Part shown: positions 13,930 to 64,000 of the stretch, in pieces
Position numbering within the stretch: position 1 is the first letter of the stretch
Layout of the letters: every line of letters begins with the position of its first letter
Origin: Eledone cirrhosa
Taxonomy: Eukaryota
Assembly (NCBI GenBank): GCA_964016885.1
Contig: CAXHJY010000472.1
Span: 1-64,000 of the forward strand
Length of the DNA stretch: 64,000 bases
Direction: 5' to 3'
Program-made: the position numbers and the translations under genes
Notes under the pieces: model-generated
Told to the model about the DNA's origin: nothing
The model's input: the letters and a program-made list of their open reading frames with translations, nothing else
The model's database searches: none

Positions 13930-14019
13930 CATACATACATACATATACATACATACATATAAACATATACATACATAAATACACACATACGAATATAGAC
14001 ATATATTCACACATAGACA

Positions 14020-14098
<79 letters not shown>

Positions 14099-15217: not shown

Positions 15218-15262
<45 letters not shown>

Positions 15263-20616: not shown

Positions 20617-22289
20617 TAACATTATTTTAGAAATTAATTTAATTTAAATGTTAGTTAACCTATAAATTAATTTAATTAAAATTTTATTACAGATGAGAAT
20701 ATAAAATATTATGTAATCATAAATTGTCGAAAAAACCTTTAAATATTACTAATATATACTTAGTAATTTAATTTATAGATTAATTTAATTTATTTAAACC
20801 TTTTATTATAATTCTTTTACAGATAAAATATAACAAATAATATCGTGTATCCAATGACAGAGAAATAATTTTTAGTATTATAGACCTAATTAATATACAT
20901 TTTAGAAATATATTTATTATTTGGTTTTAGTTTTAATCAACCTAAAAATTTTAATTTTAATTTGCTTAAAATTAGTATCCTTATACAGACGAATTGCAGA
21001 ATGTCATGTAATCATAGAATGGGATGTGTTTTGGATATATACCTAGTTAATATATTCTATGCAATTTTTTGATAAAGATATGTATATGTATATGTGTATG
21101 TGTATGTGTGTGTGTGTATGTATATGTGTATGTATGTGTATATGTGTATATATATATATATATAATATATTGTGTGTATATATATTTATATATGTATGTG
21201 TATGTATATGTATATGTATGCGTATTAATTTTGATTTCTATTTGCATATAATTATATTATGCTATTGATGAAATACAATATCTGCTTTATGTATTGTATA
21301 CCTAATTAACATATACTATGAAATAAATATACAATTTTTAATTTAGTTAACCTATAATTTATATTCTACTACCGATGTAATACTTTTATTTTATTTTTAT
21401 TTGTGTTTTTTTTCCCTATTACTAAATTCATTTCCTAATATTGATACCATAACGTTATTAACTTTAATTTAGTTATACTGTAATTAATACTCTACTACTG
21501 TTTAACTTCAAATTCTGCTTTCAAATATTATAAACCTAACTAATTTACACCTTAGAATCAATATGTTGACTATATTTGGTTAGTTTAACATATGATTAAT
21601 GGTATACTTGTTATTTTGAGATGCATAGATTTTGCCTTAGTTCTTGTTTGTTGTATTTCCTAACACTGAAAATATGTAAGAACATACATTGGATAAAGAT
21701 ACGGAAAATATTCTATGTTTCTTGAAACATTATATTTACTTTGATCCCTTCTCCAAACCCCCCCTTTCCCCATACTATTATCATCTGTATTTGTAAGCGT
21801 CTATGTATGAATATTATATGTAGGTAGGTGTCTATATAGGTTTGGGTATTTATATCTAAATATAAAAATACATATATGCGCATGCAAATATGAATGTAAG
21901 ATTTGTGTGTGTATATATGAGTGTGTGTATGTATGTATATATGAGTATATATGCATGTATATATGTATGTGTATGTGAATGTGTGTACGTTTATGTGTAT
22001 GTATGTGTATATATGTGTATATATATGTATGCATGTATATGGTAGGAAATATATATATGTATATATATATGTATATGTATATGCGTGTGTATGTATGTGT
22101 GTGTATGTGTGTTGTATATATATGTATGTCTCTCTATTTATATGTCTATCTTCGTATCTATGTGATATATGTGTGTGTGTGTGCATGTATGCATATGTAT
22201 GTGTTTATGTGTGTGTGTGTGTGTATATATGTTGTGTGTGCACACACACACATGTATATATGTGAGTGTGTATATGTGTCTGTGTATAT

Positions 22290-22348
<59 letters not shown>

Positions 22349-22429
22349 TGTCTATGTGTGAATATATGTCTATATTCGTATGTGTGTATTTATGTATATG
22401 TCTATTGTATGTATATGTATGTATGTATG

Positions 22430-22472
<43 letters not shown>

Positions 22473-22751
22473 TATTCTTTATTATTATAATATAACTTAT
22501 GTGTATATGTGTATAAGTGAGGTTGTGTATGTGTATATAATATGTGTATATATAAGTGTAAAAAAATATATATATATGTGCATGTCTGTTTTTTATGTGT
22601 GTGTATATATATATATATATATATACGTGTGTATATATATGTATATGTGGGTGTTTGTATGTGTATTTATGGTGGTATGAGTGTGTGGATATCTATGTGT
22701 ATATATATATATATATGTATGAGTGTATGTGTGTATATATATATATATATG

Positions 22752-22788
<37 letters not shown>

Positions 22789-23162
22789 ATGTATGTGTGT
22801 ATATATATATCTCTATTAATGCGTGTGTGTATGTATATACATATGCCTTTTTATTATTATTTTTATTTGTATGTCTGAGTTAGGTGAGGTTGTAGTGGTT
22901 TTTTATGTATATACGCATATATGGATGCGTATGTATTTGTATATATGAGTATAAGTAAGTGCATATGTATGTATGATTATATATCTAATTCTATGTATGA
23001 ATATACATGTATATATATGTGTGTATGTAAGTTGTGTGTGTATGTATCTATATGTCTATGTGTGTGTATATATATATATATATATATGTATATCGATGTA
23101 CGTATATGTATGTACATGTATGTCTATGTATGTGTGTATGTATGTGTATGTATATTTAGGTG

Positions 23163-23207
<45 letters not shown>

Positions 23208-23447
23208 ATATATATATATGTATATATCTTTATTATTTATTTTTTATATATATGTGTATGTGTGTATGTGTTGCGTGTGTGTGTGTGTATATATATATCT
23301 TTATATATGTGTATGTGTATGTTCGTGTAGGTGTATGTGTGTGTATGACTGTATATGTATGTGTATATGTGTATATGCGTAAATATTTCTATGTGTGTGT
23401 ACATGTATGTATGTGTATATATCTGTATGTGTATGTATGTGTATTTG

Positions 23448-23489
<42 letters not shown>

Positions 23490-24120
23490 ATATATATATA
23501 TATCTATATGTATATGTGTGTGTATGTATATATATATATATATATATCTATATGTTTTTCTATTTGTATATGTATGTGTGTATAGGTATATACCTTTCTC
23601 TTTGTATTTCTAAGCTGTGTGATAGTGTAGTGGTGTTTGTATGTATATACCGATATATAGATGCGTAAGTATTTGTCTGTATGTGTATATATGTAAGTCT
23701 GTATATATTTGTGTGTATATATAGCTATGTATGTGTATATCTGTATGTATATTAGTATGTAAGTGTTGTATATGTGCATGTATGTGTGTGGTTATATATA
23801 TCTGTGTCTATATAGTATGTGTAATTATATGTATATGTGTGTGTATATGTACGTGTATGTACATATATATATGTATATGTATGTATATATATGTGTGTAT
23901 ATATGTATGTGTATATATATATGTATGTGTATTTGTATGTATATGTGTATATGTATGTATGTGTGTATATGTATATGTTTATATATGTGTGTATATGTAT
24001 GTTCTTAGTGTGGATGTGTGTATATGTATGTATGTGTTTATATATGTGTGTATATTTATGTATGGATATGTGTGTGTCTATGTGTATATATATATATGTT
24101 TTTGTATATATATATATGTA

Positions 24121-24165
<45 letters not shown>

Positions 24166-24850
24166 ATATATGTGTATATATATATATATATATTTATTTT
24201 CTTGATATATTTCTTTTTTCTTTTTTCTTTTTTCTTTTTTCTGTTTTTCTTTCTATTCTTTCCTCTTTAATGTTTTATTTATTATATTTTATTGTTTTAT
24301 TTTTTTATCTTTCTTAGTTTATAGATACATTTATATTAGGCAGTCTGCTCAGACAGTTGAATACTGACCCCTCCCCCCCCTCCCACCTAATTTCTGTATC
24401 TTGATCTAAAAATGTGTGTGCCAGTGTTTTATGTGAGTGAATTAATATCCACGTGCTTATGATTTTATATCCACATATATAAATGTGAGTGGAAGGTGTG
24501 TGTGTGTTTGTATGTTCGTGGTTATGTGTATATTTATGCATATACGCGCGTGTATGTGTGATTGTACGGATATGTGTGAGTATGAAAAAATATATTTATA
24601 TACTTGACTTCATAAGTGTCAATACGCATCTTATCTGCGCATTGTAAGCTTACAGAGACATTAACCTTGAAATTTTGTATTTGCATCCATCCTTTTAGTA
24701 TGCGTATACAAATTATACATACATTTTTGTAAAATATGTGTAAGGGTTTTACATGTATATACACACACCGAACTGCATTTAACCCTTTGTGTTTTCATTG
24801 GTCAATTTTGAACTGAAATTTTGAATTGTTGTTATTATCAATAAATATAC

Positions 24851-25005
24851 TTCATTATTTCTGAAGACGGCGTATATATGTGTTTGGTATGTATATTTAA
24901 TCTTGATAATTTGTATAATTTTGTATAATTTTGTACATAGATCTGTTGAATATGCATACCAATTCTAACACATATATATCCTAGAAACGATCGTTAAATA
25001 ATGAA
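24851..25005 (+). ncRNA. Type I hammerhead ribozyme, downstream pLTR; predicted cleavage after 24995
   Basis: Same motif as 17682-17836. Confidence 0.75.
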
Positions 25006-25193
25006 CTTTTTTTGTTTAATATAAGGAATTGTTTATTCATTATTTGTTTAATATTTTATCTTGACTCTGTATACCGTTTATCTTTCACCGAAAGTGGATT
25101 TTCATTACATCTCTTCTTTCCATGATATCCGGAATACATTGAGTTCTTCATACGGATTGGACACTACCGTAAACTCTTGGTAGATTTATCTAC

Positions 25194-29860: not shown

Positions 29861-29942
29861 CGTTATTCCGGTTGAATCGGAGGTAACCACAGTAAGTAAG
29901 GTACTCAATACATAGCAGAGTATAATAGTTTTAATATAGAAG

Positions 29943-29993
29943 AGATTCTACAGGACTAGAACTGTTTCATTCATTAGAAATCATCAGGAATCT
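29943..29993 (-). ncRNA. Type I hammerhead ribozyme with full stem III
   Basis: Minus strand AGATTC-CTGATGA-T-TTC-TAAT-GAA-T-GAAA-CAG-TTCTAGTC-CTG-TA-GAATCT. Confidence 0.85.
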
Positions 29994-30215
29994 GGGTATC
30001 AAAAATAAATATGGTATTTATAGTCTCTACAAGTGGTAGGAGAGGGTGGGGAGTGGGATGGGTGCAGGTCATTGGTTGATAGAGAAGGGAATTCATTAAA
30101 GGGAATTCTTTAATGAATTCCTTCTCTATCAACCAATGACCTGCACCCATCCCACTCCCACCCTCTCCTACCACTTGTAGAGACCTATAAATACCATATT
30201 TATTTTTTGATACCC

Positions 30216-30265
30216 AGATTCTGATGATTTCTAATGAATGAAACAGTTCTAGTCCTGTAGAATCT
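30216..30265 (+). ncRNA. Type I hammerhead ribozyme, mirror copy with one C missing at the stem I/core junction
   Basis: AGATT-CTGATGA...GAAACAG...CTGTA-GAATCT; GUA site ends at 30259. Confidence 0.75.
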
Positions 30266-30280
30266 CTTCTATATTAAAAC

Positions 30281-30327
<47 letters not shown>

Positions 30328-30888: not shown

Positions 30889-33800
30889 ATGATGTTCCAG
30901 AACAATGTAAACGAGATAATTGCCAATTTGGGTTCTGGAACAAAAAAGATCATTGGCAATAAGGGCAGGGGCCCCAAGTTATCACAACCTGGGCCCGCCC
31001 GTCATCGTGCCATTGTAATAGAGCCAAACAGGGCATTTAGTCTTGGCTGCTGGAACGTACGGACGCTGCTTGACAGGATTCTTTGGAGCGTCCTGAACGA
31101 AGGACCGCTCTTGTTGCGAAGGAGCTTCGACGTTACGATCTTGACATCGTGGCTTTGTCTGAGACGAGGTTAGCTGGGGATGGTCATCTTACGGAATTTT
31201 GTGGAGAATATACATTCTTCTGGAAAGGAAGAGATGAAGGAACCAGAAGAGAGGCTGGGGTAGGATTTGCTGTTAAGACTGTACTGGTGAATAAATTAGA
31301 AGAATTCCAGTGGGGATTAGTGAGCGTCTTATGTCCATGAGAGTTCCGCTGGACAAGGGAAGATATGCTACCCTGGTGAGTGTGTATGCTCCAACTATGA
31401 TTCTGTCGATGAAGAAAAACTGTCCTTTTACCATGCCTTGAAAGGTGTTTTAAGAAATATCCCTCAGGCAGACAAAATCATCGTGCTTGGTGACTTTAAT
31501 GCTAGAGTGGGTAGGGATTTTAACACATGGAATGTAATCGGAAGGCATGGGGTGGGGAAAGTGTAACAGCAATGGTATGCTCTTGCTGCAGATGTGTGAG
31601 GAGCTGGATCTGTGTGTTACCAGCACCATGTTCCAACAAAAGAACAAATTCAAGACCACATGGATGCATCCTGCATCTAAGGAATGGCATCTTTTGGACT
31701 ACGTCCTAGTCAGGATGCGTGACAGACAGGATGTGCAGTGTGTTCGTGTTCTTCGTGGAGCTGAGTGCTGGACGGACCACCGCCTGGTACGCGCAAAAGT
31801 GAATCTAATCCACCAAACGTAAAATCCGGGCTCCTGGTGTTACCCTGCCCAAAAGATTGAATGCTGCTCGTCTTAAGGATAAAAATGTGAAGAGGACATT
31901 GGAAGAAGAGATGCAGGCTGCAGATCTTGGTGAGATTGGCCGACCTTAAAAAGTCGGTTTATGATGTAGGCAGACGTGTTCTGGGATTGGTGCAGAGAAA
32001 ACATCAGGACTGGTTTAATGAGAAAGATGTGCATATAGATGACTTGTTGGCTGATAAGAGGCGCGCTCTGTCACGCTACTTGACGGCAAACCACAGGAGA
32101 GGAATACGTTGCATGAGGAGCTCAGGGATGTAAAATCACGTGTTAGGCGGAGTCTTTCTCAGATGAAGGATCAGTGGTGGAGTGAGAAGGCTGGTGAGAT
32201 ACAAACTGCGTCTGATTGCAATAACACAAAGCTGTTGTACAGTCTCTTGCGTGAGGTTTATGGACCGTCTTCTTCTCTGGTGACACCGATTCGCAGCAAG
32301 GATGGCAAAGAACTTCTTCGTGACTCACAGGGAATTCTACGAAGGTGGCGAGAGCACTTTGATGATCTTTTGAATCAGCCGTCTGTCGTCAGTGAAGATT
32401 TCCTCAATCTCATTCCGGAAAGTCCTGTGAAAGTAGCTCTCGCAGAACCTCCGACACTTGTGGAGGTTGCAGTGGCTATTTCGAAGCTGAACAGTGGAAG
32501 ATCTCCAGGTATGGATGGCATACATGCTGAGCTCCTACAATATGGTGGTGAGAGACTCCTGCAACATCTTCACTCTCTGTTTGGAAGGATATGGGCTAAT
32601 GAATCCGTGCCTGAGGACTGGAGAGATGCAGTAATGGTGGTCTTGTACAAGGGAAAGGGTAACAGGAATGATGTGGGAACTACAGAGGTATATCATTGCT
32701 TTCTGTCGTGGGGAAAGTTTTATGTAGGGTGCTTCTGGACCGTCTGCTGACACACATTGCAGATTGTGTCCTTCCTGAAAGCCAATCTGGTTTTCGTGTT
32801 GGACGCGGCACTACTGATATGATCTTCTCAGCTAGACAGCTCCAGGAGAAGTGCATTGAACAGGGCTTGGATCTGTATCAGGTTTTTGTCGATCTGACAA
32901 AGGCTTTCGATACTGTCAACAGAGATGCATTATGGAAGGTTCTCCAGAAACTTGGTTGCCCTGATAAGTTCCTTGCTTTAGTTAGGTCTTTCCATGACGA
33001 CATGAAGGCTTGGGTTAATGTCGGAGGTAACATGTCGGAGCCTATCTCAGTAAAAAATGGAGTGAAACAGGGGGATATTCCAGCACCGACCCTGTTTGCC
33101 ATATACTTTGCAATGGTTTTCTGTATTGCATTCAGGAATTGCGAGCATGGTGTTTACATCCGATATCGAACCTCAGGCAGCATATTTAACATCAGGCGCT
33201 TTGCTGCGAAGACAAAAGTATTTACATCAGTCATAAGAGACCTCTTGTATGCAGATGATTGCGATCTTGTAGCGCACACAGAGAGTGATATGCAGCACAT
33301 TTTGAATGTATTTTCTGACGCTTGCACTGCCCTGGGTTTGACTGTCAGTCTCAAGAAAACCGTCGTCATGTACCAACCTGCACCTGGTAGGCAGTACACT
33401 GAACCAAACATCTATGTGTATGGCAAACGACTTGGAGTGGTTGATCAGTTTGTCTACCTGGGAAGCACTGTCAATCGATACGGCAACCTTGACAGTGAAA
33501 TCTCACTTAGGATTAGGAAAGCAAGTGATGCTTTCGGAAAGCTAGAAAGGCGACTCTGGGGTCGGCGAGACATATGCAGGAGGACAAAGGTAAGGGTGTA
33601 CAGGGCATGTGTACTCTCTTGTCTTCTTTATGCCTGCGAGACCTGGGTCACATATCGACGCCACCTTAAGCAATTGGAGCGTTTCCATCAGATGTGTCTC
33701 AGACGGATACATGGCGTTCACTGGAGGGACCACATCAGTGATGTCGAGATTTTGGAAAGCTCTATGTGTGACAGTATAGAAGCTCTTGTGCTTAAGCAGC

Positions 33801-34430
33801 GACTCCGTTGGAGTGGTCACCTTGCCAGGATGAAGGATTCTAGAATACCAAAACAACTCTTCTATGGAGAGTTGGTTAAAGGAAAACGACCGCCACATAA
33901 ACCAAAAAAGAGGTATAAGGATTCCTTGAAGGCCTCTCTGAAAGACGCTAACATCTCTGCTGATACATGGGAAAATATTGCTGCTGATCGTAATAAATGG
34001 AGAAAGACTGTATATGAGGGAAAAAGTTGCCTTTGAGGCATCTCGAATCGCACACGAGAAAGTAAAGCGGGACGTGAGGAAGGGTATTGCTGTTGCACTT
34101 CCAGACGGCGAGGGTCCTCCTATGTTTCTGACATGCAGCGTCTGTGCGAGACTCTGCCTAAGCAAAGCTGGACTCGAAAGTCATCTTCGCAGTCATAAAG
34201 TAAGACCAGTGGTTGACTACCAGGCTGCTGTTGGAGATGCTACTCATCATGCTTGCCAAACATGTGGTAGAGAATGTAAATCAGCAGGAGGACTCAAGCG
34301 ACATGCAAAAGTACACGAACTCCAACCACAGCCGACTATTGCCAGTAAATGTTTTGGTTGCCGACTCTGTGCAAGACATTTTAGATCATTGGCTGGGCTA
34401 AAAAGCCACATTCGATCGCAGCACTGTTAG
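30889..34430 (+). pseudogene. RTE APE endonuclease + RT + three C2H2 zinc fingers, multiple frameshifts
   Basis: GCWNVRTL, DIVALSETRL, GVGFAV, TTWMHP, LDYVLV, TDHRLV, SPGMDGI, ESQSGFR, FVDLTKAFD, GVKQG, LYADD, RLRWSGH; three CxxC...HxxxH-type fingers. Confidence 0.92.
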
Positions 34431-35054: not shown

Positions 35055-35861
<807 letters not shown>

Positions 35862-35873
35862 AATATATATATA

Positions 35874-35994
<121 letters not shown>

Positions 35995-36698
35995 GGATTA
36001 ACAAATAATAGTTAAATGCAGTCCACTTAGGTGAAGTCCAGTTATGGTATTCCAGGTAGTGGATGATATTAACGCTTGGCTTGGTTTGACTCAACAAGGC
36101 GTTTTCATAGTGATGCTGCGGGTATGCTGTAATTCCTATGTTGTAAACACTTGGAGTAATAATAAATCAGGAAAGAAGGTTTACATGGTTTGCTATACAA
36201 AAAAGTTTTTAATCACATAGCTTACATTTGTTTCACTGAACTGGTATGTTTAGAGATCGCTATCCGCCTAATTTTGCGTCACTCGATCGCCAATACAGAA
36301 TTATAACCAGTCAGATCTTCGGAGCATGCGAGAATGAAGAAAATACACAGGCAAGAAAATAAAAGAAAATATGGAGTAGTTATGGCATTCAATTAGAACA
36401 ATAAACAACAACAATTATTACAACAATGCTATCAATAAACTATTTAAGGAGACCCTGACATTACTTAGGTGGGGGGTATATAATGTATCTAATGTTACGG
36501 CGTGAAAACCAGCTGTCATAAGGCAAAAAGTATCGTAGTGTGTATCAATTTTAAATTATAAAGATAAGCTAGTTTTTACAGTCTTTCTCTTCATCTTCAA
36601 CCGTATACATGAGTGGGACCACTGTCACAGCTCAATAGTTGTAGAGTTAATACAGAGGTTAACGAATTAATATACGCATATATCTACGCACGCACACA

Positions 36699-36795
<97 letters not shown>

Positions 36796-37189
36796 TAAAT
36801 ACATATACACATATATGTGTACATAGACACATACATACACACTAATATACACTCGTACAAAAATATACATACATGCAAAGAGAAAAGCGTGCTAATTGTA
36901 ATATGGCAAAAAGAAGGTAAAGTAACATTGTAGTAGTGAAATGAGAAAAACTAGGATCTAGGATCAAATGATTGCAGCAGCTGAGAAGGAGTAAGATTGT
37001 TGGTAGATGAGGTATTTACAGACTATTGTGTGGTATAGACTTGTGAAGGAAATAGTATACTTAATGAATATATATTTTTTTTTGTGGGTAGTAGGTATCC
37101 TAATTTAAAGCTATGTTATGTTGGTTCGATTCACGGAGGTTTGAATCTTATGAATTTAGTGGCTATTCTATGCCTGCAGAAGATCTATC

Positions 37190-37240
37190 TTCTGCAGGCA
37201 TAGAATAGCCACTAAATTCATAAGATTCAAACCTCCGTGA
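37190..37240 (+). pseudogene. C-terminal remnant of a PLE ORF (FCRHRIATKFIRFKPP*)
   Basis: Aligns without gaps to SCNHKLKKTFKYYKPN* of the main PLE (C, H, F, KP and stop position shared). Confidence 0.6.
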
Positions 37241-37574
37241 ATCGAACCAACATAACATAGCTTTAAATTAGGATACCTACTACCCACAAAAAAAATATAT
37301 ATTCATTAAGTATACTATTTCCTTCACAAGTCTATACCACACAATAGTCTGTAAATACCTCATCTACCAACAATCTTACTCCTTCTCAGCTGCTGCAATC
37401 ATTTGATCCTAGATCCTAGTTTTTCTCATTTCACTACTACAATGTTACTTTACCTTCTTTTTGCCATATTACAATTAGCACGCTTTTCTCTTTGCATGTA
37501 TGTATATTTTTGTACGAGTGTATATTAGTGTGTATGTATGTGTCTATGTACACATATATGTGTATATGTATTTA

Positions 37575-37680
<106 letters not shown>

Positions 37681-38039
37681 CGTAGATATATGCGTATATT
37701 AATTCGTTAACCTCTGTATTAACTCTACAACTATTGAGCTTTGACAGTGGTCCCACTCATGTATACGGTTGAAGATGAAGAGAAAGACTGTAAAAACTAG
37801 CTTATCTTTATAATTTAAAATTGATACACACTACGATACTTTTGCCTTATGACAGCTGGTTTTCACGCCGTAACATTAGATACATTATATACCCCCCACC
37901 TAAGTAATGTCAGGGTCTCCTTAAATAGTTTATTGATAGCATTGTTGTAATAATTGTTGTTGTTTATTGTTCTAATTGAATGCCATAACTACTCCATATT
38001 TTCTTTTATTTTCTTGCCTGTGTATTTTCTTCATTCTCG

Positions 38040-38152
38040 CATGCTCCGAAGATCTGACTGGTTATAATTCTGTATTGGCGATCGAGTGACGCAAAATTAG
38101 GCGGATAGCGATCTCTAGACATACCAGTTCAGTGAAACAAATGTAAGCTATG
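38040..38152 (+). ncRNA. Hammerhead-like motif with long stem II and CCGAAGA core (mirror at 36216-36328, -)
   Basis: CATGCT-CCGAAGA-T-CTGACTGG...CCAGTTCAG-T-GAAA-CAAATG-TA-AGCTATG. Confidence 0.6.
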
Positions 38153-38205
38153 TGATTAAAAACTTTTTTGTATAGCAAACCATGTAAACCTTCTTTCCTG
38201 ATTTA

Positions 38206-40970
<2,765 letters not shown>

Positions 40971-41257
40971 TGTTATATTTGGGGAGGGTCATATTTGCGT
41001 AATATTGCCAGAATTAATAACAGAACACACTCACTGTTTGGTTGGTTTTCGCTTCTCGCTGTCTTTTATATATATATATCTGCGATCTAACTTACTCGGT
41101 CCTCAATGTTGCCATTGACTGACGGCGGTCAAAAATAATACAGATACAATATAGACAAACACATATATATATAGTTTACATAAATCTTTCGTTGCACATC
41201 TGCAACATCGTCAGTGGTGTTATATTCATTGTTCCTCCTGTTGTGTTGTATGTCTAC

Positions 41258-41288
<31 letters not shown>

Positions 41289-41334: not shown

Positions 41335-41336
<2 letters not shown>

Positions 41337-41686
41337 GATAAATCTACCAAGAGTTTACGGTAGTGTCCAATCCGTATGAAGAACTCAATGTATTCCGGAT
41401 ATCATGGAAAGAAGAGATGTAATGAAAAACCACTTTCGGTGAAAAATAAACGGTATACAGAGTCAAGATAAAATATTAAACAAATAATGAATAAACAATT
41501 CCTTATATTAAACAAAAAAAGTTCATTATTTAACGATCGTTTCTAGGATATATATGTGTTAGAATTGGTATGCATATTCAACAGATCTATGTACAAAATT
41601 ATACAAAATTATACAAATTATCAAGATTAAATATACATACCAAACACATATATACGCCGTCTTCAGAAATTATTCATTATTTCTGA
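41335..41686 (-). mobile_element. Solo pLTR 3' fragment D of the main PLE with a 14-nt inverted cap
   Basis: Matches 4827-5161; ends inside HHR stem I, followed by inverted TTCATTATTTCTGA. Confidence 0.9.
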
Positions 41687-43211
<1,525 letters not shown>

Positions 43212-43265
43212 TAAACAAATAATGAATAAACAATGAAAACAGTTCCTTATATTAAACAAAAAAAG

Positions 43266-43419
43266 TTCATTATTTAACGATCGTTTCTAGGATATATATG
43301 TGTTAGAATTGGCATGCATATTCAACAGATCTATGTACAAAATTATACAAAATTATACAAACTATCAAGATTAAATATACATACCAACACATATATACGC
43401 CGTCTTCAGAAATAATGAA
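43266..43419 (-). ncRNA. Type I hammerhead ribozyme with long stem II
   Basis: Reverse complement of the pLTR HHR. Confidence 0.72.
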
Positions 43420-44080
43420 ATATATTTATTGATAACAACAATTCAAAATTTCAGGTCCGTTTGGGAACAAAATTGACCAATGAAAATACAAAAGGTTTAA
43501 TGCAGTTCGGGTGTGTGTATATACATGTAACTACCCTTACACATATTTTACAAAAATGTATGTACAACTTGTATACGCATACGAAAAGGATGGATGCAAA
43601 TACAAAATTTCAAGGTTAATGTCTCTGTAAGTTTATAATGCACAGATAAGATGCGTATAGACACATAAATATGAAATAAGTGTATATACATATTTTCATA
43701 CTCACTCATATCCGTACAATCACACATACACACGCGTATATGCATAAACATACACATAAACTACGAACATACAAACACACACACACCCCCACTCACATAT
43801 ATATATATGTGGATATAAAATCCTAAGCACATGGATATTAATTCACTCACATAAACATTGGCACACACATTTAGATCAAGATACAGAAATTAGGTGGGAG
43901 GGGAGGAAAGGTCAGTATTCAACTGTTTGGGCTGACTGCTTAATATAGATGTATCTATAAACTAAGAAAATAAAAAATAATAAATAATAAATAATAATAA
44001 ATAATAAATAAACATTAAAAAGGAAAGAAAAGAAAAAGAAAAAGAAAAAAGAAAAAAGAAAAAAGAAATATATCAAGAAA

Positions 44081-44143
<63 letters not shown>

Positions 44144-44305
44144 CACGTACATACACACATACATATACACATACACACATACAAACACATACATACATAT
44201 ACACACATCCACACTTAGAACATACATACACACACATATATAAACATATACATATACACACATACATACATATACACACATACATATAAATACACATATA
44301 CATAT

Positions 44306-44366
<61 letters not shown>

Positions 44367-44663
44367 CACTCATACATACACATATAATCACACATACTAT
44401 ATAGACACACATATATATACACACATACACGCACATATACATACACTTACATACATATATACATACAGATATACACATACATACCTATATATACACACAA
44501 ATACATACAGACATACATACATACATACAGACAAATACTTAGGCATCTATATATCGGTATATACATACAAACACCACTACACTCTCACACAACTCAGACA
44601 TACAAAGAAAAAGGTATATACATATACATATAGAGAAACATATACATATATATATATATATAT

Positions 44664-44715
<52 letters not shown>

Positions 44716-44890
44716 ACACATATACACACATACACATACATACACATACATACATGTACACACACATAGATATATATATACATACACACATACATATTTA
44801 GTCATACACACACATACACCTACACGAACATACACATACACATATATAAAGATATATATACACACACACACACATATATATAAAAAAAGC

Positions 44891-44935
<45 letters not shown>

Positions 44936-45266
44936 CATATACATACACACATACATAGACATATATGTACATACATACACATACATAGATACATACACAC
45001 ACATACATACATATATATATACACACATAGACATATACTTACATACACACACAACATACATACACACATATATACTCATACATAGAATTAGATATATAAT
45101 CATACATACATACGCACTTACATATACTCATATATACAAATACATACGCATCCATATATGCGTATATACATAGAAACACCACTACACCCTCACCCAACTC
45201 AGACATACAAAGAAAAAGGCATATACATATACATATATACACGCATTAATAGAGATATATATACAC

Positions 45267-45298
<32 letters not shown>

Positions 45299-45527
45299 AC
45301 TTATATATATATACTCACACCCACATACAACCAAAAATACACATACAAACACCCACATATACATATATATACACATATATATATATACACACACATAAAA
45401 AACAGACATGCACATATATATTTTTTTACACACATATATATACACATATATATACATATACACACCCTCACATATACACACATACACATAAGTTATATTA
45501 TAATAATAAATAATATATATATATAAC

Positions 45528-45582
<55 letters not shown>

Positions 45583-45847
45583 CGAATATAGACACATATA
45601 CGCACATAGATACATATACATATATATATATACACACATACATATACACACACACATATACACACTCACATATACATGTGTGTGCACACACACATATATA
45701 CACATACACACATATACACATAAACACATATATGTGTATACATGCGCACACACACATATATCCACATAGATACGAAGATAGACATATAAATAGAGAGACA
45801 TACATATATATACACACACACATATATACATACATACATACACACAC

Positions 45848-45907
<60 letters not shown>

Positions 45908-47241
45908 ACACATACACATACACATATATATACACACATGCATATATACACATATACACATACATACACACACATATATATACACACACAATCTTACATT
46001 CTTACTTGCATGCGCATATATGTATTTTTATATTCAGATATAAATACCCAAACATATATGCACCTACCTACATATATATTCATACATACACGCCTACAAA
46101 GACAGATGGTAATAGTATGGGGGAAAGGGGGGGGTTGGAGAAGGGGATTATAGTAAATATATGTTTCAAGAAACATAGAATATTATCCATATCAGGATCC
46201 AATGTATATTTTTTTACATAGTTTCAGTGTTAGGAAATACAATAAACAAGAAATAAGGCAAAATTTATGCATTTCAAAATAAATAAGTATACCATTAAAT
46301 TATATGTTAACTAAACTAAAGATAGTTAACATATTGATTTCTAAGGTGTAAATTAGTTAGGTTTATAATATTTGAAGCAGAATTTTGAAGTTAAATAGTA
46401 GTAGAGTATTAATTATAGTATAACTAAATTAAAGTTAATAACGTTATGGTATCAATATTAGGAACTGAATTTAGTAATAGGGAAAAAACAAATAAAATAA
46501 AGTATTACATCGGTAGTAGAATATAAATTATAGGTTAACTAAATTAAAAATTATATATTTATTTCTATAGTATATGTTAATTAGGTATATAATAAATAAA
46601 ACAGATATTGTATTTTATCAATAGCAGAATATAATTATATGCAAATAGAAATCAAAATTAATACATATACATATACATATACATACACATATATATATAC
46701 ACATATATATACATATATATATACATATATACACATATACACACACACACACATACACATACACATATACATATACATATTTTTTCAAAAATTGCAAAGA
46801 ATATATTAACTAGGTATATATCCAAAACACATCCCATTCTATGATTACATGACATTCTGCAATTCGTCTGTATAAGGATACTAATTTTAAGCCAATTAAA
46901 TTAAATTTTTAGGTTGATTAAAATTAAAACCAAATTATAAATATATTTCTAAAATGTATATTAATTAGGTCTATAATACTAAAAATTAATTCTCTGTCAT
47001 TGGATACACGATATTTTGTTATATTTTATCTGTAAAAGAATTATAATAAAAGGTTTAAATAAATTAAAATTAATCTATAAATTAAATTACTAAGTATATA
47101 TTAGTAATATTTAAAGGTTTTTCACAATTTATGATTACATAATATTTTATATTCTCATCTGTAATAGAATTTTAATTAAATTAAATTTATAGGTTAACTA
47201 ACATTTAAATTAAAATTAAATTAATTTCTAAAATAATGTTA

Positions 47242-48272
47242 TTAATTAGGTTTATAATATTTAAATGTTTTTTTTAGTTTATGATTACACGATATAATTA
47301 ATTCCTGTCGTTTATTTAATAGGATATCCTTAGATTTCATTATTTCAAATAGTTCTTGGGAACATAATCTACATTCATTTCTATTATTTTGATAAGGGGT
47401 GGCTCTTTTGAGCACACTCCAGGTCAAATCATATTCTATATTCTTATTTTTATAAATATTGATTTTTTCTGCTAGAGATGTTGTATTAGCCAGTGCGGCA
47501 TTTTTAAAACTATGCTTGTGGGTATTAAACCTTGTCTTAAAATTGTTAGAGGTAGCTCCTATATATGAGCAAATAGAATCTTTAGTTTTAACATTACATT
47601 TATAGACTATGTTGTTAACAAGACAATTCCCTTTTAATGGGCAGTTTGCTTTGTTTCTACAGTTACAACCTTTCGTTAATTCTGTATTTGAGGAGATATT
47701 ATGGTTAATTTGATGTACTGGTGGTATACTTATGGTTTTCTTACATTTATATGCATTATAGGCACTTATATTTTGTTTTATGTTATTTGTTGTAGAATAT
47801 GAGAATTTAACTGTAGACCTATTTAAGATTTGATGGTATTTGTGGTTTGGCGGGAAGTTTTTCTCTAGGATATAAAAAAATTTTTTAGCAATATTATTCT
47901 TAATTTGTAAATTAAATGGAGCATTATACCAAGTAACCCGTCTATTACGGTTTCTATGTTGTTTATTATTTTTATTATTTTTATAGGTTGTATCGTGATT
48001 TTTACTAGGAGGATTAATGTTAATGATCTCACCACAACCATTTTTAGTTATATTTGTAGATTTAGGTGTTCTATCCTTTTTATTAGGAGTTTTATTATTA
48101 ATATTTATTAGAGTTGTATGATGAGTAGTTTTTTGAGAGTTACTATATTTTATATTAGAAGATTTGGTATTTTGGGGTATAGTGTGGGTGGCATTTAGGT
48201 GTGTACTTTTCATTTGGTGTTTGTTGGTAATATTAGGTTGTATGCTTTCAGTATTTTTAGTAGAAGGTATAT
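47242..48272 (-). CDS. PLE linker + zinc knuckle + GIY-YIG fragment
   Basis: Near-identical to the C-terminus of 9078-10670; the first ~15 aa of the called ORF come from the opposite arm. Confidence 0.88.
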
Positions 48273-48273
48273 A

Positions 48274-48778
48274 TGTAAGAAAACCATAAGTATACCACCA
48301 GTACATCAAATTAACCATAATATCTCCTCAAATACAGAATTAACGAAAGGTTGTAACTGTAGAAACAAAGCAAACTGCCCATTAAAAGGGAATTGTCTTG
48401 TTAACAACATAGTCTATAAATGTAATGTTAAAACTAAAGATTCTATTTGCTCATATATAGGAGCTACCTCTAACAATTTTAAGACAAGGTTTAATACCCA
48501 CAAGCATAGTTTTTAAAAATGCCGCACTGGCTAATACAACATCTCTAGCAGAAAAAATCAATATTTATAAAAATAAGAATATAGAATATGATTTGACTTG
48601 GAGTGTGCTCAAAAGAGCCACCCCTTATCAAAATAATAGAAATGAATGTAGATTATGTTCCCAAGAACTATTTGAAATAATGAAATCTAAGGATATCCTA
48701 TTAAATAAACGACAGGAATTAATTATATCGTGTAATCATAAACTAAAAAAAACATTTAAATATTATAAACCTAATTAA
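48274..48778 (+). pseudogene. PLE GIY-YIG fragment with a +1 T frameshift near 48514
   Basis: CKKTISIPP...HKHSF, then TWSVLKRA...YYKPN* in the next frame. Confidence 0.88.
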
Positions 48779-50120
48779 TAACATTATTTTAGAAATTAAT
48801 TTAATTTTAATTTAAATGTTAGTTAACCTATAAATTTAATTTAATTAAAATTCTATTACAGATGAGAATATAAAATATTATGTAATCATAAATTGTGAAA
48901 AACCTTTAAATATTACTAATATATACTTAGTAATTTAATTTATAGATTAATTTTAATTTATTTAAACCTTTTATTATAATTCTTTTACAGATAAAATATA
49001 ACAAAATATCGTGTATCCAATGACAGAGAATTAATTTTTAGTATTATAGACCTAATTAATATACATTTTAGAAATATATTTATAATTTGGTTTTAATTTT
49101 AATCAACCTAAAAATTTAATTTAATTGGCTTAAAATTAGTATCCTTATACAGACGAATTGCAGAATGTCATGTAATCATAGAATGGGATGTGTTTTGGAT
49201 ATATACCTAGTTAATATATTCTTTGCAATTTTTGAAAAAATATGTATATGTATATGTGTATGTGTATGTGTGTGTGTGTGTGTATATGTGTATATATGTA
49301 TATATATATGTATATATATGTGTATATATATATGTGTATGTATATGTATATGTATATGTATTAATTTTGATTTCTATTTGCATATAATTATATTCTGCTA
49401 TTGATAAAATACAATATCTGTTTTATTTATTATATACCTAATTAACATATACTATAGAAATAAATATATAATTTTTAATTTAGTTAACCTATAATTTATA
49501 TTCTACTACCGATGTAATACTTTATTTGTTTTGTTTTTTCCCTATTACTAAATTCAGTTCCTAATATTGATACCATAACGTTATTAACTTTAATTTAGTT
49601 ATACTATAATTAATACTCTACTACTATTTAACTTCAAAATTCTGCTTCAAATATTATAAACCTAACTAATTTACACCTTAGAAATCAATATGTTAACTAT
49701 CTTTAGTTTAGTTAACATATAATTTAATGGTATACTTATTTATTTTGAAATGCATAAATTTTGCCTTATTTCTTGTTTATTGTATTTCCTAACACTGAAA
49801 CTATGTAAAAAAAATATACATTGGATCCTGATATGGATAATATTCTATGTTTCTTGAAACATATATTTACTATAATCCCCCTTCTCCAACCCCCCCCCCC
49901 TTTCCCCCATACTATTACCATCTGTCTTTGTAGGCGTGTATGTATGAATATATATGTAGGTAGGTGCATATATGTTTGGGTATTTATATCTGAATATAAA
50001 AATACATATATGCGCATGCAAGTAAGAATGTAAGATTGAGTGTGTATATATATGTGTGTGTATGTATGTGTATATGTGTATATATGCATGTGTGTATATA
50101 TATGTGTATGTGTATGTGTG

Positions 50121-50181
<61 letters not shown>

Positions 50182-50446
50182 GTGTGTGTATGTATGTATG
50201 TATATATGTGTGTGTGTATATATATGTATGTCTCTCTATTTATATGTCTATCTTCGTATCTATGTGGATATATGTGTGTGTGCGCATGTATACACATATA
50301 TGTGTTTATGTGTATATGTGTGTATGTGTATATATGTGTGTGTGCACACACATGTATATGTGAGTGTGTATATGTGTGTGTGTATATGTATGTGTGTATA
50401 TATATATATGTATATGTATCTATGTGCGTATATGTGTCTATATTCG

Positions 50447-50503
<57 letters not shown>

Positions 50504-50730
50504 GTTATATATATATTATTTATTATTATAATATAACTTATGTGTATGTGTGTATATGTGAGGGTGTGTATATGTATATATATGTGTATATATATGTGTG
50601 TAAAAAAATATATATGTGCATGTCTGTTTTTTATGTGTGTGTATATATATATATGTGTATATATATGTATATGTGGGTGTTTGTATGTGTATTTTTGGTT
50701 GTATGTGGGTGTGAGTATATATATATAAGT

Positions 50731-50762
<32 letters not shown>

Positions 50763-51093
50763 GTGTATATATATCTCTATTAATGCGTGTATATATGTAT
50801 ATGTATATGCCTTTTTCTTTGTATGTCTGAGTTGGGTGAGGGTGTAGTGGTGTTTCTATGTATATACGCATATATGGATGCGTATGTATTTGTATATATG
50901 AGTATATGTAAGTGCGTATGTATGTATGATTATATATCTAATTCTATGTATGAGTATATATGTGTGTATGTATGTTGTGTGTGTATGTAAGTATATGTCT
51001 ATGTGTGTATATATATATGTATGTATGTGTGTGTATGTATCTATGTATGTGTATGTATGTACATATATGTCTATGTATGTGTGTATGTATATG

Positions 51094-51140
<47 letters not shown>

Positions 51141-51342
51141 GCTTTTTTTTATATATATGTGTGTGTGTGTATGTGTGTGTGTGTGTGTGTATATATATCT
51201 TTATATATGTGTATGTGTATGTTCGTGTAGGTGTATGTGTGTGTATGACTAAATATGTATGTGTGTATGTGTGTATGTATATATATATCTATGTGTGTGT
51301 ACATGTATGTATGTGTATGTATGTGTATGTGTGTATATGTGT

Positions 51343-51424
<82 letters not shown>

Positions 51425-51711
51425 GTTTCTCTATTTGTATATGTATATGTGTATAGGTATATACCTTTTTCTTTGTATGTCTGAGTTGTGTGAGAGTGTA
51501 GTGGTGTTTGTATGTATATACCGATATATAGATGCCTAAGTATTTGTCTGTATGTATGTATGTATGTCTGTATGTATTTGTGTGTATATATAGGTATGTA
51601 TGTGTATATCTGTATGTATATATGTATGTAAGTGTATGTATATGTGCGTGTATGTGTGTATATATATGTGTGTCTATATAGTATGTGTGATTATATGTGT
51701 ATGTATGAGTG

Positions 51712-51791
<80 letters not shown>

Positions 51792-51988
51792 ATATGTATA
51801 TGTGTATTTATATGTATGTGTGTATATGTATGTATGTGTGTATATGTATATGTTTATATATGTGTGTGTATGTATGTTCTAAGTGTGGATGTGTGTATAT
51901 GTATGTATGTGTTTGTATGTGTGTATGTGTATATGTATGTGTGTATGTACGTGTATGTATATTATATATATATATATATATAGTATAG

Positions 51989-52020
<32 letters not shown>

Positions 52021-52652
52021 CTTGATATATTTCTTTTTTCTTTTTTCTTTTTCTTTTTCTTTTCTTTCCTTTTTAATGTTTATTTATTATTTATTATTAT
52101 TTATTATTTATTATTTTTTATTTTCTTAGTTTATAGATACATCTATATTAAGCAGTCAGCCCAAACAGTTGAATACTGACCTCTCCCCCCCTCCCACCTA
52201 ATTTCTGTATCTTGATCTAAATGTGTGTGCCAATGTTTATGTGAGTGAAGGATTTTATATCCACATATATATATATGTGAGTGGGGGTGTGTGTGTGTTT
52301 GTATGTTCGTAGTTTATGTGTATGTTTATGCATATACGCGTGTATGTGTGATTGTACGGATATGAGTGAGTATGAAAATATGTATATACACTTATTTCAT
52401 ATTTATGTGTCTATACGCATCTTATCTGTGCATTATAAACTTACAGAGACATTAACTTTGAAATTTTGTATTTGCATCATCCTTTTCGTATGCGTATACA
52501 AGTTGTACATACATTTTTGTAAAATATGTGTAAGGGTAGTTACATGTATATACACACACCGAACTGCATTAAACCTTTTGTATTTTCATTGGTCAATTTT
52601 GTTCCCAAACGGACCTGAAATTTTGAATTGTTGTTATTATCAATAAATATAT

Positions 52653-52806
52653 TTCATTATTTCTGAAGACGGCGTATATATGTGTTGGTATGTATATTTA
52701 ATCTTGATAGTTTGTATAATTTTGTATAATTTTGTACATAGATCTGTTGAATATGCATGCCAATTCTAACACATATATATCCTAGAAACGATCGTTAAAT
52801 AATGAA
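52653..52806 (+). ncRNA. Type I hammerhead ribozyme with long stem II
   Basis: Core and stems conserved in subfamily C. Confidence 0.72.
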
Positions 52807-53004
52807 CTTTTTTTGTTTAATATAAGGAACTGTTTTCATTGTTTATTCATTATTTGTTTAATATTTTATCTTGACTCTGTATACCGTTTATCTTTCACCG
52901 AAAGTGATTTTTCATTACATCTCTTCTTTCCATGATATCCGGAATACATTGAGTTCTTCATACGGATTGGACACTACCGTAAACTCTTGGTAGATTTATC
53001 TACA

Positions 53005-57418
<4,414 letters not shown>

Positions 57419-57419
<1 letters not shown>

Positions 57420-59673
57420 GTTTATTATAAACATACAGAATATTTTCGAATATTCTATGTCTATATTCACATATATATCGCTATTTCAGAGCATTTATTC
57501 CAATTTCTAATTTCTGCCGGACCGGCAACCGCTCTTTCAAACCAGTTCCTGTACACAGCTAAGTATTCTATAAGTCTCTAGCTGTGTCATTCTCGATAAA
57601 AGCACTGGATATGTAGTCCTGATGATTTCTAACAAGAATGAAACGCGTAGATTACTTCCCTTGCTTTTATCGAGAATCTAATTGTAATACGTGACGTATT
57701 CTATTCTATAGCGATTAGGTCTTCAAAATGTTTATTATAAACATACAGAATATTTTCGAATATTCTATGTCTATATTCACATATATATCGCTATTTCAGA
57801 GCATTTATTCCAATTTCTAATTTCTGCCGGACCGGCAACCGCTCTTTCAAACCAGTTCCTGTACACAGCTAAGTATTCTATAAGTCTCTAGCTGTGTCAT
57901 TCTCGATAAAAGCACTGGATATGTAGTCCTGATGATTTCTAACAAGAATGAAACGCGTAGATTGCTTCCCTTGCTTTTATCGAGAATCTAATTGTAATAC
58001 GTGACGTATTCTATTCTATAGCGATTAGGTCTTCAAAATGTTTATTATAAACATACAGAATATTTTCGAATATTCTATGTCTATATTCACATATATATCG
58101 CTATTTCAGAGCATTTATTCCAATTTCTAATTTCTGCCGGACCGGCAACCGCTCTTTCAAACCAGTTCCTGTACACAGCTAAGTATTCTATAAGTCTCTA
58201 GCTGTGTCATTCTCGATAAAAGCACTGGATATGTAGTCCTGATGATTTCTAACAAGAATGAAACGCGTAGATTACTTCCCTTGCTTTTATCGAGAATCTA
58301 ATTGTAATACGTGACGTATTCTATTCTATAGCGATTAGGTCTTCAAAATGTTTATTATAAACATACAGAATATTTTCGAATATTCTATGTCTATATTCAC
58401 ATATATATCGCTATTTCAGAGCATTTATTCCAATTTCTAATTTCTGCCGGACCGGCAACCGCTCTTTCAAACCAGTTCCTGTACACAGCTAAGTATTCTA
58501 TAAGTCTCTAGCTGTGTCATTCTCGATAAAAGCACTGGATATGTAGTCCTGATGATTTCTAACAAGAATGAAACGCGTAGATTACTTCCCTTGCTTTTAT
58601 CGAGAATCTAATTGTAATACGTGACGTATTCTATTCTATAGCGATTAGGTCTTCAAAATGTTTATTATAAACATACAGAATATTTTCGAATATTCTATGT
58701 CTATATTCACATATATATCGCTATTTCAGAGCATTTATTCCAATTTCTAATTTCTGCCGGACCGGCAACCGCTCTTTCAAACCAGTTCCTGTACACAGCT
58801 AAGTATTCTATAAGTCTCTAGCTGTGTCATTCTCGATAAAAGCACTGGATATGTAGTCCTGATGATTTCTAACAAGAATGAAACGCGTAGATTACTTCCC
58901 TTGCTTTTATCGAGAATCTAATTGTAATACGTGACGTATTCTATTCTATAGCGATTAGGTCTTCAAAATGTTTATTATAAACATACAGAATATTTTCGAA
59001 TATTCTATGTCTATATTCACATATATATCGCTATTTCAGAGCATTTATTCCAATTTCTAATTTCTGCCGGACCGGCAACCGCTCTTTCAAACCAGTTCCT
59101 GTACACAGCTAAGTATTCTATAAGTCTCTAGCTGTGTCATTCTCGATAAAAGCACTGGATATGTAGTCCTGATGATTTCTAACAAGAATGAAACGCGTAG
59201 ATTACTTCCCTTGCTTTTATCGAGAATCTAATTGTAATACGTGACGTATTCTATTCTATAGCGATTAGGTCTTCAAAATGTTTATTATAAACATACAGAA
59301 TATTTTCGAATATTCTATGTCTATATTCACATATATATCGCTATTTCAGAGCATTTATTCCAATTTCTAATTTCTGCCGGACCGGCAACCGCTCTTTCAA
59401 ACCAGTTCCTGTACACAGCTAAGTATTCTATAAGTCTCTAGCTGTGTCATTCTCGATAAAAGCACTGGATATGTAGTCCTGATGATTTCTAACAAGAATG
59501 AAACGCGTAGATTACTTCCCTTGCTTTTATCGAGAATCTAATTGTAATACGTGACGTATTCTATTCTATAGCGATTAGGTCTTCAAAATGTTTATTATAA
59601 ACATACAGAATATTTTCGAATATTCTATGTCTATATTCACATATATATCGCTATTTCAGAGCATTTATTCCAA
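57419..59673 (+). mobile_element. Tandem array of a 310-bp HHR-containing unit, ~7.3 copies (non-LTR retrozyme-like)
   Basis: Unit starts at 57419, 57729, 58039, 58349, 58659, 58969, 59279, 59589; units near-identical; one HHR per unit; no real ORF. Confidence 0.9.
57589..57677 (+). ncRNA. Type I hammerhead ribozyme of unit 1 (recurs every 310 bp, 7 copies); predicted cleavage after GUA at 57649
   Basis: GTAGTC-CTGATGA-T-TTCT-AACA-AGAA-T-GAAA-CGCG-TA-GATTAC; stem I extended by a 16-bp helix ATTCTCGATAAAAGCA/TGCTTTTATCGAGAAT. Confidence 0.88.
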
Positions 59674-62355
<2,682 letters not shown>

Positions 62356-63140
62356 TTGGAATAAATGCTCTGAAATAGCGATATATATGTGAATATAGAC
62401 ATAGAATATTCGAAAATATTCTGTATGTTTATAATAAACATTTTGAAGACCTAATCGCTATAGAATAGAATACGTCACGTATTACAATTAGATTCTCGAT
62501 AAAAGCAAGGAAGTAATCTACGCGTTTCATTCTCGTTAGAATCATCAGGACTACATATCCAGTGCTTTTATCGAGAATGACACAGCTAGAGACTTATAGA
62601 ATACTTAGCTGTGTACAGGAACTGGTTTGAAAGAGCGGTTGCGGTCCGGCAGAAATTAGAAATTGGAATAAATGCTCTGAAATAGCGATATATATGTGAA
62701 TATAGACATAGAATATTCGAAAATATTCTGTATGTTTATAATAAACATTTCAAAATGTTTATTATAAATGTTTATTATAAATGTTTATTATAAACATACA
62801 GAATATTTTCGAATATTCTATGTCTATATTCACATATATATCGCTATTTCAGAGCCTTTATTCCAATTTCTAATTTCTGCCGGACCGGCAACCGCTCTTT
62901 CAAACCAGTTCCTGTACACAGCTAAGTATTCTATAAGTCTCTAGCTGTGTCATTCTCGATAAAAGCACTGGATATGTAGTCCTGATGATTTCTAACGAGA
63001 ATGAAACGCGTAGATTACTTCCCTTGCTTTTATCGAGAATCTAATTGTAATACGTGACGTATCTATTCTATAGCGATTAGGTCTTCAAAATGTTTATTAT
63101 AAACATACAGAATATTTTCGAATATTCTATGTCTATATTC

Positions 63141-63141
<1 letters not shown>
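62356..63141. mobile_element. Palindromic insertion of the 310-bp retrozyme-like unit (62356-62750 -, 62751-63141 +)
   Basis: Each arm is ~1.2-1.3 units with one HHR; the junction has AATGTTTATTATA three times. Confidence 0.88.

Positions 63142-64000
<859 letters not shown>

Follow-up and report, generated by a model that had tools for sequence, protein, structure and literature searches.

A gene-less hammerhead-motif repeat of Eledone cirrhosa inserted as a PLE-style head-to-head pair

A 64,000-nt stretch of Eledone cirrhosa DNA (GenBank assembly GCA_964016885.1, contig CAXHJY010000472.1, positions 1 to 64,000; hereafter the window) contains a head-to-head insertion of a gene-less 310-bp unit with a hammerhead motif, set into a (TA)n microsatellite. 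The pair was probably made (we would say about two chances in three) by a PLE reverse transcriptase-endonuclease acting in trans on RNA of the unit. Its PLE-style character is given by the head-to-head polarity, a 34-nt tail on one arm, the (TA)n target, a microhomology joint and a palindrome at the 5' junction. The original prediction had called this a direct structural link between a retrozyme-like RNA and the PLE integration machinery. The PLE-style part holds by more features than were used there, but "direct" is too strong a word, since what is seen is a footprint and no significant sequence is shared with the PLE of the window.

The window consists of a stretch of (TA)n microsatellite with many insertions. 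Unit positions are numbered from +1, the A that opens ATGTTTATTATAAACAT. By blastn the unit was present at two loci only within the window, a tandem array (57418-59673) and the pair (62356-63141), and nhmmer gave nine strong matches in the window, seven of them array units and two the arms. Tandem Repeats Finder reported neither the array nor the 13-mer repeat discussed below, and both were established by script. The unit has no ORF of 90 or more residues, and an RT plus GIY-YIG ORF is absent from unit, array and pair; the unit is thus not an autonomous EN+ PLE. The GC content is 28% over 58001-60000 (a span that takes in some flank), below the retrozyme bound of 50%. As a linear monomer the unit folds better than its shuffles (z = -4.4, none of 100 shuffles as good), and the circular fold reaches -67.8 kcal/mol versus -61.3 for the best of 60 shuffles. 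An exact 21-nt pattern gave no matches in prokaryotic genomes, as should be the case with a repeat of eukaryotes. Words resembling TATA and Inr elements were noted in the unit by eye and are used in no inference.

Array units are near-identical, with one difference in 2256 nt. The array begins at +1 (57418) with a 2-nt AT overlap with the flank and finishes at +86 (59673), at ATTCCAA/TA, where the slash marks the end. The (TA)n repeat flanks both loci (2/2), as it does the three PLE pairs of the window (3/3), and because it lies on both flanks target-site duplications, which are long in non-LTR retrozymes when present, are unreadable.

Table 1 Features of the window that bear on the head-to-head pair
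Feature	Coordinates	Strand	Remarks
Most complete Hydra-type PLE pair	11285-25193		Full arm 17290-25193, plus strand
Sister Hydra-type PLE pairs	4826-11089 and 43203-53003		Solo end 41335-41673
Tandem array, 7 x 310 + 86 nt	57418-59673	+	7 hammerhead motifs; 1 difference among units
(TA)n target between array and pair	59674-62355		ATTTA:TAAAT = 129:0; polarity never flips
Left arm: one unit + 86 nt, 3' end outward	62356-62748	-	Start and end as in array
34-nt tail, +53 to +86	62356-62389	-	Terminal on left arm and array; missing from right arm 3' end
Predicted type I hammerhead, left arm	62513-62554	-	Cut after 62519; loop-II variant 62534
17-nt palindrome at left arm 5' end	62732-62748	-	At head-to-head junction
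Head-to-head junction, TT microhomology (2 nt)	62749-62750		Common to both arms
Right arm: start -6 to -4, two extra 13-mers, one unit, end +52	62749-63141	+	Short 3' end
13-mer ATGTTTATTATAA x 3	62755-62793	+	Right arm only
8-bp stem with UUCG loop, +20 to +39	62800-62819	+	Strongest local hairpin; no junction here
Predicted type I hammerhead, right arm	62976-63018	+	Cut after 63012; loop-II variant 62997
(TA)n target right of pair	63142-64000		ATTTA:TAAAT = 28:4; polarity unchanged

Both arms of the pair are 393 nt long. The left arm, which runs on the minus strand from 62748 (or 62750) to 62356, is 310 + 86 nt minus three one-base homopolymer deletions. Its 3' end at ATTCCAA/TA (+86) is the same base as the array end at 59673, whereas its 5' end lies between -2 and +1 and coincides with the first base of the array if the shared TT is given to the right arm. 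The right arm runs on the plus strand from 62749 to 63141 and stops at TATTCA/TA (+52), beside the longest alternating AT run of the unit (8 nt, +54 to +61), where a (TA)n end could pair at 9 of 10 nt. The outer ends therefore differ, the right arm being 34 nt shorter at its 3' end (+52 versus +86), and this arm also reaches at least 4 nt further 5' than the left one. As neither arm contains the other, neither is a plain copy of its partner, and snap-back copying of one arm off the other was rejected. Note that the tail size comes from one focal pair and that the short end (+52) was observed once, in two loci in all. The coordinates originally predicted for the pair were correct, as was the identity of the long-arm end with the array end, but the arm is "long" only with respect to its 3' end, overall length being equal. 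The 34-nt asymmetry of the outer ends, which is the best PLE clue, had been overlooked.

The two loci have the same 3' end within 1 nt and the same 5' end within 3 nt, for which p is ~2e-4 when ends are taken as uniform on the 310-nt unit, a post hoc value from two loci that ignores shared ancestry. Both arms carry AACGAGAAT where all seven array units carry AACAAGAAT, an AACG in place of AACA that falls in hammerhead loop II. The two arms show the variant on opposite strands, which makes an error specific to one strand unlikely. The pair is thus very probably an event separate from the array, in agreement with what had been proposed from this variant. The distribution of the variant (2/2 arms, 0/7 array units) also weighs against a purely DNA-level origin of the pair, as an inverted duplicate of the array end formed by fold-back or template switching in the fragile (TA)n without an RNA step. 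Such a duplicate would suit the short distance of 2.7 kb to the array and the presence of both array ends in the left arm, but the right arm has the other 3' end and starts further 5' than the first unit of the array. In addition, the ATTTA polarity is unflipped between the loci. This agrees with a true insertion, but plus-strand counts of ATTTA greatly exceed those of TAAAT in every one of the 12 (TA)n tracts examined (213:1 and 129:0 are examples) and, with all 12 of one polarity, the test may lack power. Taken together, we consider DNA-level duplication improbable.

The uniform strand bias of (TA)n may be a regional mutation bias or a read artefact, and the latter bears on a further explanation, that the pair is a fold-back artefact of library, read or assembly. 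The window has many inverted pairs, and the arms are richer in one-base deletions than the array: four one-base homopolymer deletions plus one private substitution were found in 786 nt of arm sequence, which exceeds the single difference in 2256 nt of array and suggests noisier sequence inside the palindrome. However, a fold-back would mirror the outer ends, yet those of the focal pair differ by 34 nt, the same kind of asymmetry recurs base for base in three PLE pairs, and the LINE fragments and the array are unmirrored. An artefact therefore seems very improbable.

Self-BLAST of the window returned six further inverted pairs and, with the focal pair, all seven (7/7) are long at one outer end and short at the other. 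Three are Hydra-type PLE pairs (Table 1) having an identical long 3' end and an identical short 3' end, 134 nt apart. Their central overlaps are 1, 3, and 6 nt, compared with 2 nt in the focal pair. In the PLE pair 43203-53003 the short-ended arm extends 521 nt further 5' than the long-ended (tailed) arm and hence neither arm is a copy of the other. The outer-end differences of the remaining pairs are ~63 nt (29862-30283), ~57 nt (35266-35863), and ~168 nt (35994-38210). Only the focal pair, with 34 nt, falls within the published tail range of 30-40 nt among the seven pairs of the window; the tail of the Hydra-type PLE measures 134 nt versus the 30-40 nt given for PLEs in PMC8557442.

The window PLE was provisionally assigned using the Hydra-clade features listed in section 11 of PMC8557442, and it matches in its C-terminal GIY-YIG with a CxCX5C linker, CxxC, CxH, hammerhead motif and (TA)n target. 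It has RWR where the Hydra clade has RWK, DKT was not found in frame, and its period is ~7.2 kb including internal microsatellites versus less than 3 kb for the clade. Assignment to Naiad was rejected because the endonuclease is C-terminal. Pfam gave no informative match for the PLE ORFs P0001 and P0002. A protein search found 119 relatives, one of which, an Argonauta hians hypothetical protein, has Pfam GIY-YIG and RVT_1 matches under the cut-off. The PLE hammerhead motif has a ~115-nt insert replacing the short helix II. The long 3' end of the PLE (4826, 18023, 25193) finishes in a palindrome, GTAGAT-TT-ATCTAC, whereas that of the 310-bp unit is at the 5' end. At 41660-41690 the 5' junction of the solo PLE end carries a 14-nt inverted piece resembling a miniature second arm.

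Several of the other insertions also have hammerhead motifs. The small inverted pair at 29862-30283 matches the 310-bp unit in core and U-U-closed helix II, has a full helix III and shows a 14-mer near-duplication at its centre. The hammerhead-motif pair at 35266-35863 has a 3-nt central loop and a 28-nt duplication in its short-ended arm; in the focal pair, too, the arm with the triple 13-mer is the short-ended one. A solo insertion at 40972-41262 is related to this family (score 85 versus 52 for the best of 200 shuffles), has a hammerhead-like core by eye and ends within ~2 nt of the short 3' end of the family. The inverted pair at 35994-38210 has arms of ~1.1 kb and a near-perfect centre, and a pattern scan found no hammerhead in it.

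The window also has two LINE-type RT ORFs (1152-3002 on the minus strand and 32672-34036 on the plus strand; RVT_1, E ~1e-30), and a LINE RT could in principle have inserted unit RNA by L1-type twin priming. This would fit the inverted structure with its microhomology joint, the position of the short end next to an AU run and the presence of these ORFs. Twin priming by L1 yields non-overlapping segments, whereas the arms of the pair overlap almost fully, and they end in neither poly(A) nor a repeat tail. Moreover, self-BLAST found no inverted partner for either LINE ORF in the window, indicating that inversion is family-specific rather than a general artefact. We give the LINE explanation almost no weight.

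A pattern scan of our own found the type I hammerhead motif in all seven full array units and in both arms, with the predicted cut 79 nt before +1. The motif sets the sense strand of the unit, and in the neighbouring PLE the hammerhead strand is that of the ORFs. The predicted ribozyme has a 6-bp helix I, a short helix II closed by U-U and a 1-bp helix III with a palindromic loop; in the left arm one T fewer is present at the base of helix II. PMC4209133 describes type I hammerheads with a 6-bp helix I, a short helix II and a helix III of 1-2 bp with a palindromic loop, from which the U-U closing pair of the unit departs, as does that of family 29862-30283. Rfam gave no matches in the whole window at gathering score, and the nine matches obtained at E up to 10 in 62300-63200 included no hammerhead; the miRNA-precursor matches there are far under their cut-offs and reflect the inverted repeat. 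The ribozyme call therefore relies on the motif and on the geometry of PMC4209133. The monomer is predicted to disfavour the active hammerhead fold (+0.9 versus -5.8 kcal/mol). Two copies of the unit can form helix III between them (-9.5 kcal/mol for the isolated 11-mer duplex), which matches the dimeric type I hammerheads of PMC4209133. Note that eight of nine Xenopus retrozymes assayed failed to cleave in vitro (bioRxiv 10.64898/2026.07.22.740005). Each arm passes the predicted cleavage site once without a scar, from which we infer that the template was presumably either a multimer that had stayed uncleaved or a circle closed by ligation.

The original prediction that both loci have their 5' junction at a hairpin was borne out. 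All three 5' ends (one in the array and two in the pair) are at or just 5' of the 17-nt palindrome ATGTTTA-TTA-TAAACAT, with a spread of no more than 8 nt. The unit has three perfect hairpins with stems of at least 6 bp, and by our arithmetic the chance of a 5' end falling at a hairpin is ~7%, so that this coincidence is weaker than that of the shared ends. The triplicated 13-mer reported there is also present. Its 13-nt period equals both the length of the GTTTA-TTA-TAAAC hairpin and the distance between two A-tracts; the combination of slip and hairpin is found at other sites of the unit as well (10 entries, 8 distinct).

The accompanying claim that RT stalled at a fixed hairpin is unsupported as worded, and stalling at the palindrome hairpin in the RNA template is an unlikely cause of the fixed 5' end. 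The location of three of three ends within 8 nt at the hairpin, and of the slip repeat at the same place, speaks for it. Stalling at a template hairpin should, however, leave cDNA ends on the 3' side of the hairpin, and the observed ends are past it. In the predicted RNA ensemble the palindrome hairpin has a pair probability of 0.34-0.44, and it competes with a longer stem, +1..+4 with +52..+55 (0.44-0.50), that caps the UUCG hairpin. The UUCG stem is stronger (0.65-0.97) and has no junction. By our count the palindrome site was passed 12 times, 9 of which were read through and 3 of which ended there. In the window PLE seven 5' ends were mapped, all of them different, and one of the seven is near a hairpin start compared with ~0.2 expected. 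A general hairpin rule for 5' ends thus failed on this element. Because the three ends of the unit lie within 8 nt whereas the seven PLE ends all differ, recurrence is a property of the unit.

Our tentative preference is that the fixed 5' end arose by release of the cDNA through its own hairpin. As DNA, the antisense strand is predicted to fold the palindrome just before a T-tract, and this fold together with the 13-nt period fits release and slippage of new cDNA, although the repeat may instead stem from slippage on the opposite strand or during repair synthesis. Nearly as likely is that the RNA itself has a fixed 5' end near -6, which would account for n = 1 in both arms. That the ends agree through a shared source or by chance is doubtful. 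Palindromes of 18 and 38 bp are already known at the 5' ends of pLTRs and at inverted junctions of PLEs, where the pLTR ones were interpreted as self-priming sites (PMC3846280).

A plausible course of events for insertion by a PLE protein in trans would be as follows. An array located elsewhere and bearing the AACG variant would be transcribed, its RNA either staying an uncleaved multimer or becoming a ligated circle. Both strands of the target would be cleaved by a PLE protein directed to (TA)n, and each target 3' end would prime its own cDNA from an internal site of the unit RNA. The two start points would be +86 and +52, which lie 164 and 130 nt beyond the cleavage site, respectively; at +52 the AU run of the RNA could pair with the target end over 9 of 10 nt. 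Synthesis of both cDNAs would run through the +1 palindrome at the first encounter and terminate a little past it at the second. A hairpin formed by the new cDNA in front of a weak dT:rA tract would bring about its release and would also account for the two 13-nt slips; the fixed RNA 5' end is the alternative for this step. The cDNA ends would then join via 2 nt, followed by fill-in. In this scheme the array would represent an insertion with a single arm that started and stopped at the same places and grew longer through rolling-circle copying or, later, unequal crossover. Since each strand of the pair has one hammerhead, no circles are predicted to come from it, and RNA transcribed through both arms would fold into a long double-stranded hairpin.

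The closest competitor to action in trans is that the unit is the tandem end region of an autonomous PLE located outside the window. The pair would then be a doubly 5'-truncated PLE inserted in cis, with the array grown at the DNA level. Every junction feature is a PLE feature, 24 of 57 Xenopus retrozyme families match TEs, nearly all of them PLEs, and retrozyme families are often pLTR-homologous, with local tandem amplification proposed (bioRxiv 10.64898/2026.07.22.740005). Opposite-strand hammerhead pairs 100-700 bp apart are also known for PLEs (PMC4209133). However, at both loci the sequence leading up to the 3' end comprises a complete 310-nt period and part of another copy, all of it non-coding. 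The unit lacks an ORF of at least 90 residues, and the parent would require at least two such terminal repeats. We therefore hold insertion in cis to be rather unlikely.

We also compared the unit with the PLE and other families of the window in 14 comparisons (seven regions, two strands). No same-strand similarity to the PLE was detected in three regions, where 43-90 of 100 shuffles scored equally. The only same-strand signal was a 28-column hammerhead core shared with the pair 29862-30283 (1 of 100 shuffles), which is partly forced by the core. Two opposite-strand scores between unit and PLE (2 and 4 of 100 shuffles) were set aside; the one alignment printed is gappy.

The stop site and the short start site are the two feet of one predicted structure. 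A bolder proposal, which we offer at long odds, is that metazoan retrozyme RNAs carry a full minimal PLE programme in ~90 nt: two internal RT start sites 34 nt apart and an RT release site. The two feet of the +1 to +55 stem-loop would be the stop site and the short start site. Starting from both target strands, a PLE dimer would roll round the circle and stop about once in four turns, with telomerase-like slips adding 13-nt repeats. Recognition would be of structure rather than sequence, which could allow a single PLE protein to act for several hammerhead families that are unrelated.

Arguments about the enzyme that moves animal retrozymes have relied on common hammerheads, tandem arrangement and co-occurrence (PMC7229834) and, more recently, on pLTR homology (bioRxiv 10.64898/2026.07.22.740005). 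Homology is evidence of origin rather than of present spread, and local DNA amplification remains an option. The tailed head-to-head pair, in contrast, would be a trace of the mechanism itself, a PLE-type insertion that used RNA of the repeat, and it suggests that insertion of such hammerhead-motif repeats into genomes is likely the work of a Penelope enzyme that they borrow. The PLE conclusion is the expected one and its surprise is moderate. It gives defined predictions, starts at +52 and +86 and a stop at -6 to +1, and a template of ~400 nt suits the in vitro PLE assay of PMC11167929. The pair may also represent a route by which a retrozyme gives rise to a long self-complementary locus that could trigger silencing.

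On the features that sequence can test, the unit is a non-LTR retrozyme that behaves like a non-autonomous PLE passenger. Non-LTR retrozymes have tandem units of 150-450 bp (PMC7229834) and, like the metazoan examples described in PMC7229834 and bioRxiv 10.64898/2026.07.22.740005, the unit is a non-coding tandem repeat of this size with low GC, one type I hammerhead motif per unit, a well-folded monomer and PLEs alongside. Beyond what the main texts of these two sources describe, it also occurs as a head-to-head pair with a tail and fixed ends. The word "inverted" does not occur in the main text of PMC7229834, and in bioRxiv 10.64898/2026.07.22.740005 it appears only in a reference title, whereas "tail" and "junction" are absent. 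In the papers on retrozymes and PLEs that we consulted, no retrozyme was described as inserted in the form of a head-to-head pair with a tail.

The shared features are those of EN+ PLEs such as the Hydra clade (PMC8557442), Poseidon PAc (PMC11167929), and Adineta Pen2/Pen3a (PMC3846280): partial tandem, inverted 5'-joined copy, one-end tail, (TA)n target, hammerhead upstream of the 3' ends, 5'-junction palindrome and microhomology joint. PLE insertions often have a 30-40-bp tail at one end only (PMC8557442), given as 31 bp in PMC3846280. In the in vitro assay of PMC11167929 RT has two internal start sites and the tail corresponds to the interval between them; the PLE protein used there cleaves AT-rich DNA on both strands, extends both and has a preference for uncleaved RNA. 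In contrast to EN+ PLEs the unit has no ORF and a period of 310 nt, and it differs from the window PLE in its recurrent 5' end and in sequence.

The nearest parallel to an ORF-less passenger is provided by the non-autonomous Chlamys PLEs of Chlamydomonas, MRC1 and Chlamys-N4, which make pLTRs and multicopy head-to-tail insertions in microsatellites (PMC8557442, PMC9977147). As in a passenger, the array and the left arm of the unit have a terminal direct repeat from a partial tandem (n x 310 + 86), the inverted copy is 5'-joined, the 34-nt tail is at one end (one pair) and the microsatellite is shared with the PLE. According to the same sources, Chlamys passengers generally have 3' sequence in common with an autonomous family (for the unit, none was seen with the one PLE family of the window), most Chlamys elements are without hammerheads, and the active pair that was studied targets (C)n. 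The pair architecture is already known as standard for PLEs and a link between retrozymes and PLEs has been proposed before; what the pair adds is evidence for it at the level of the junctions.
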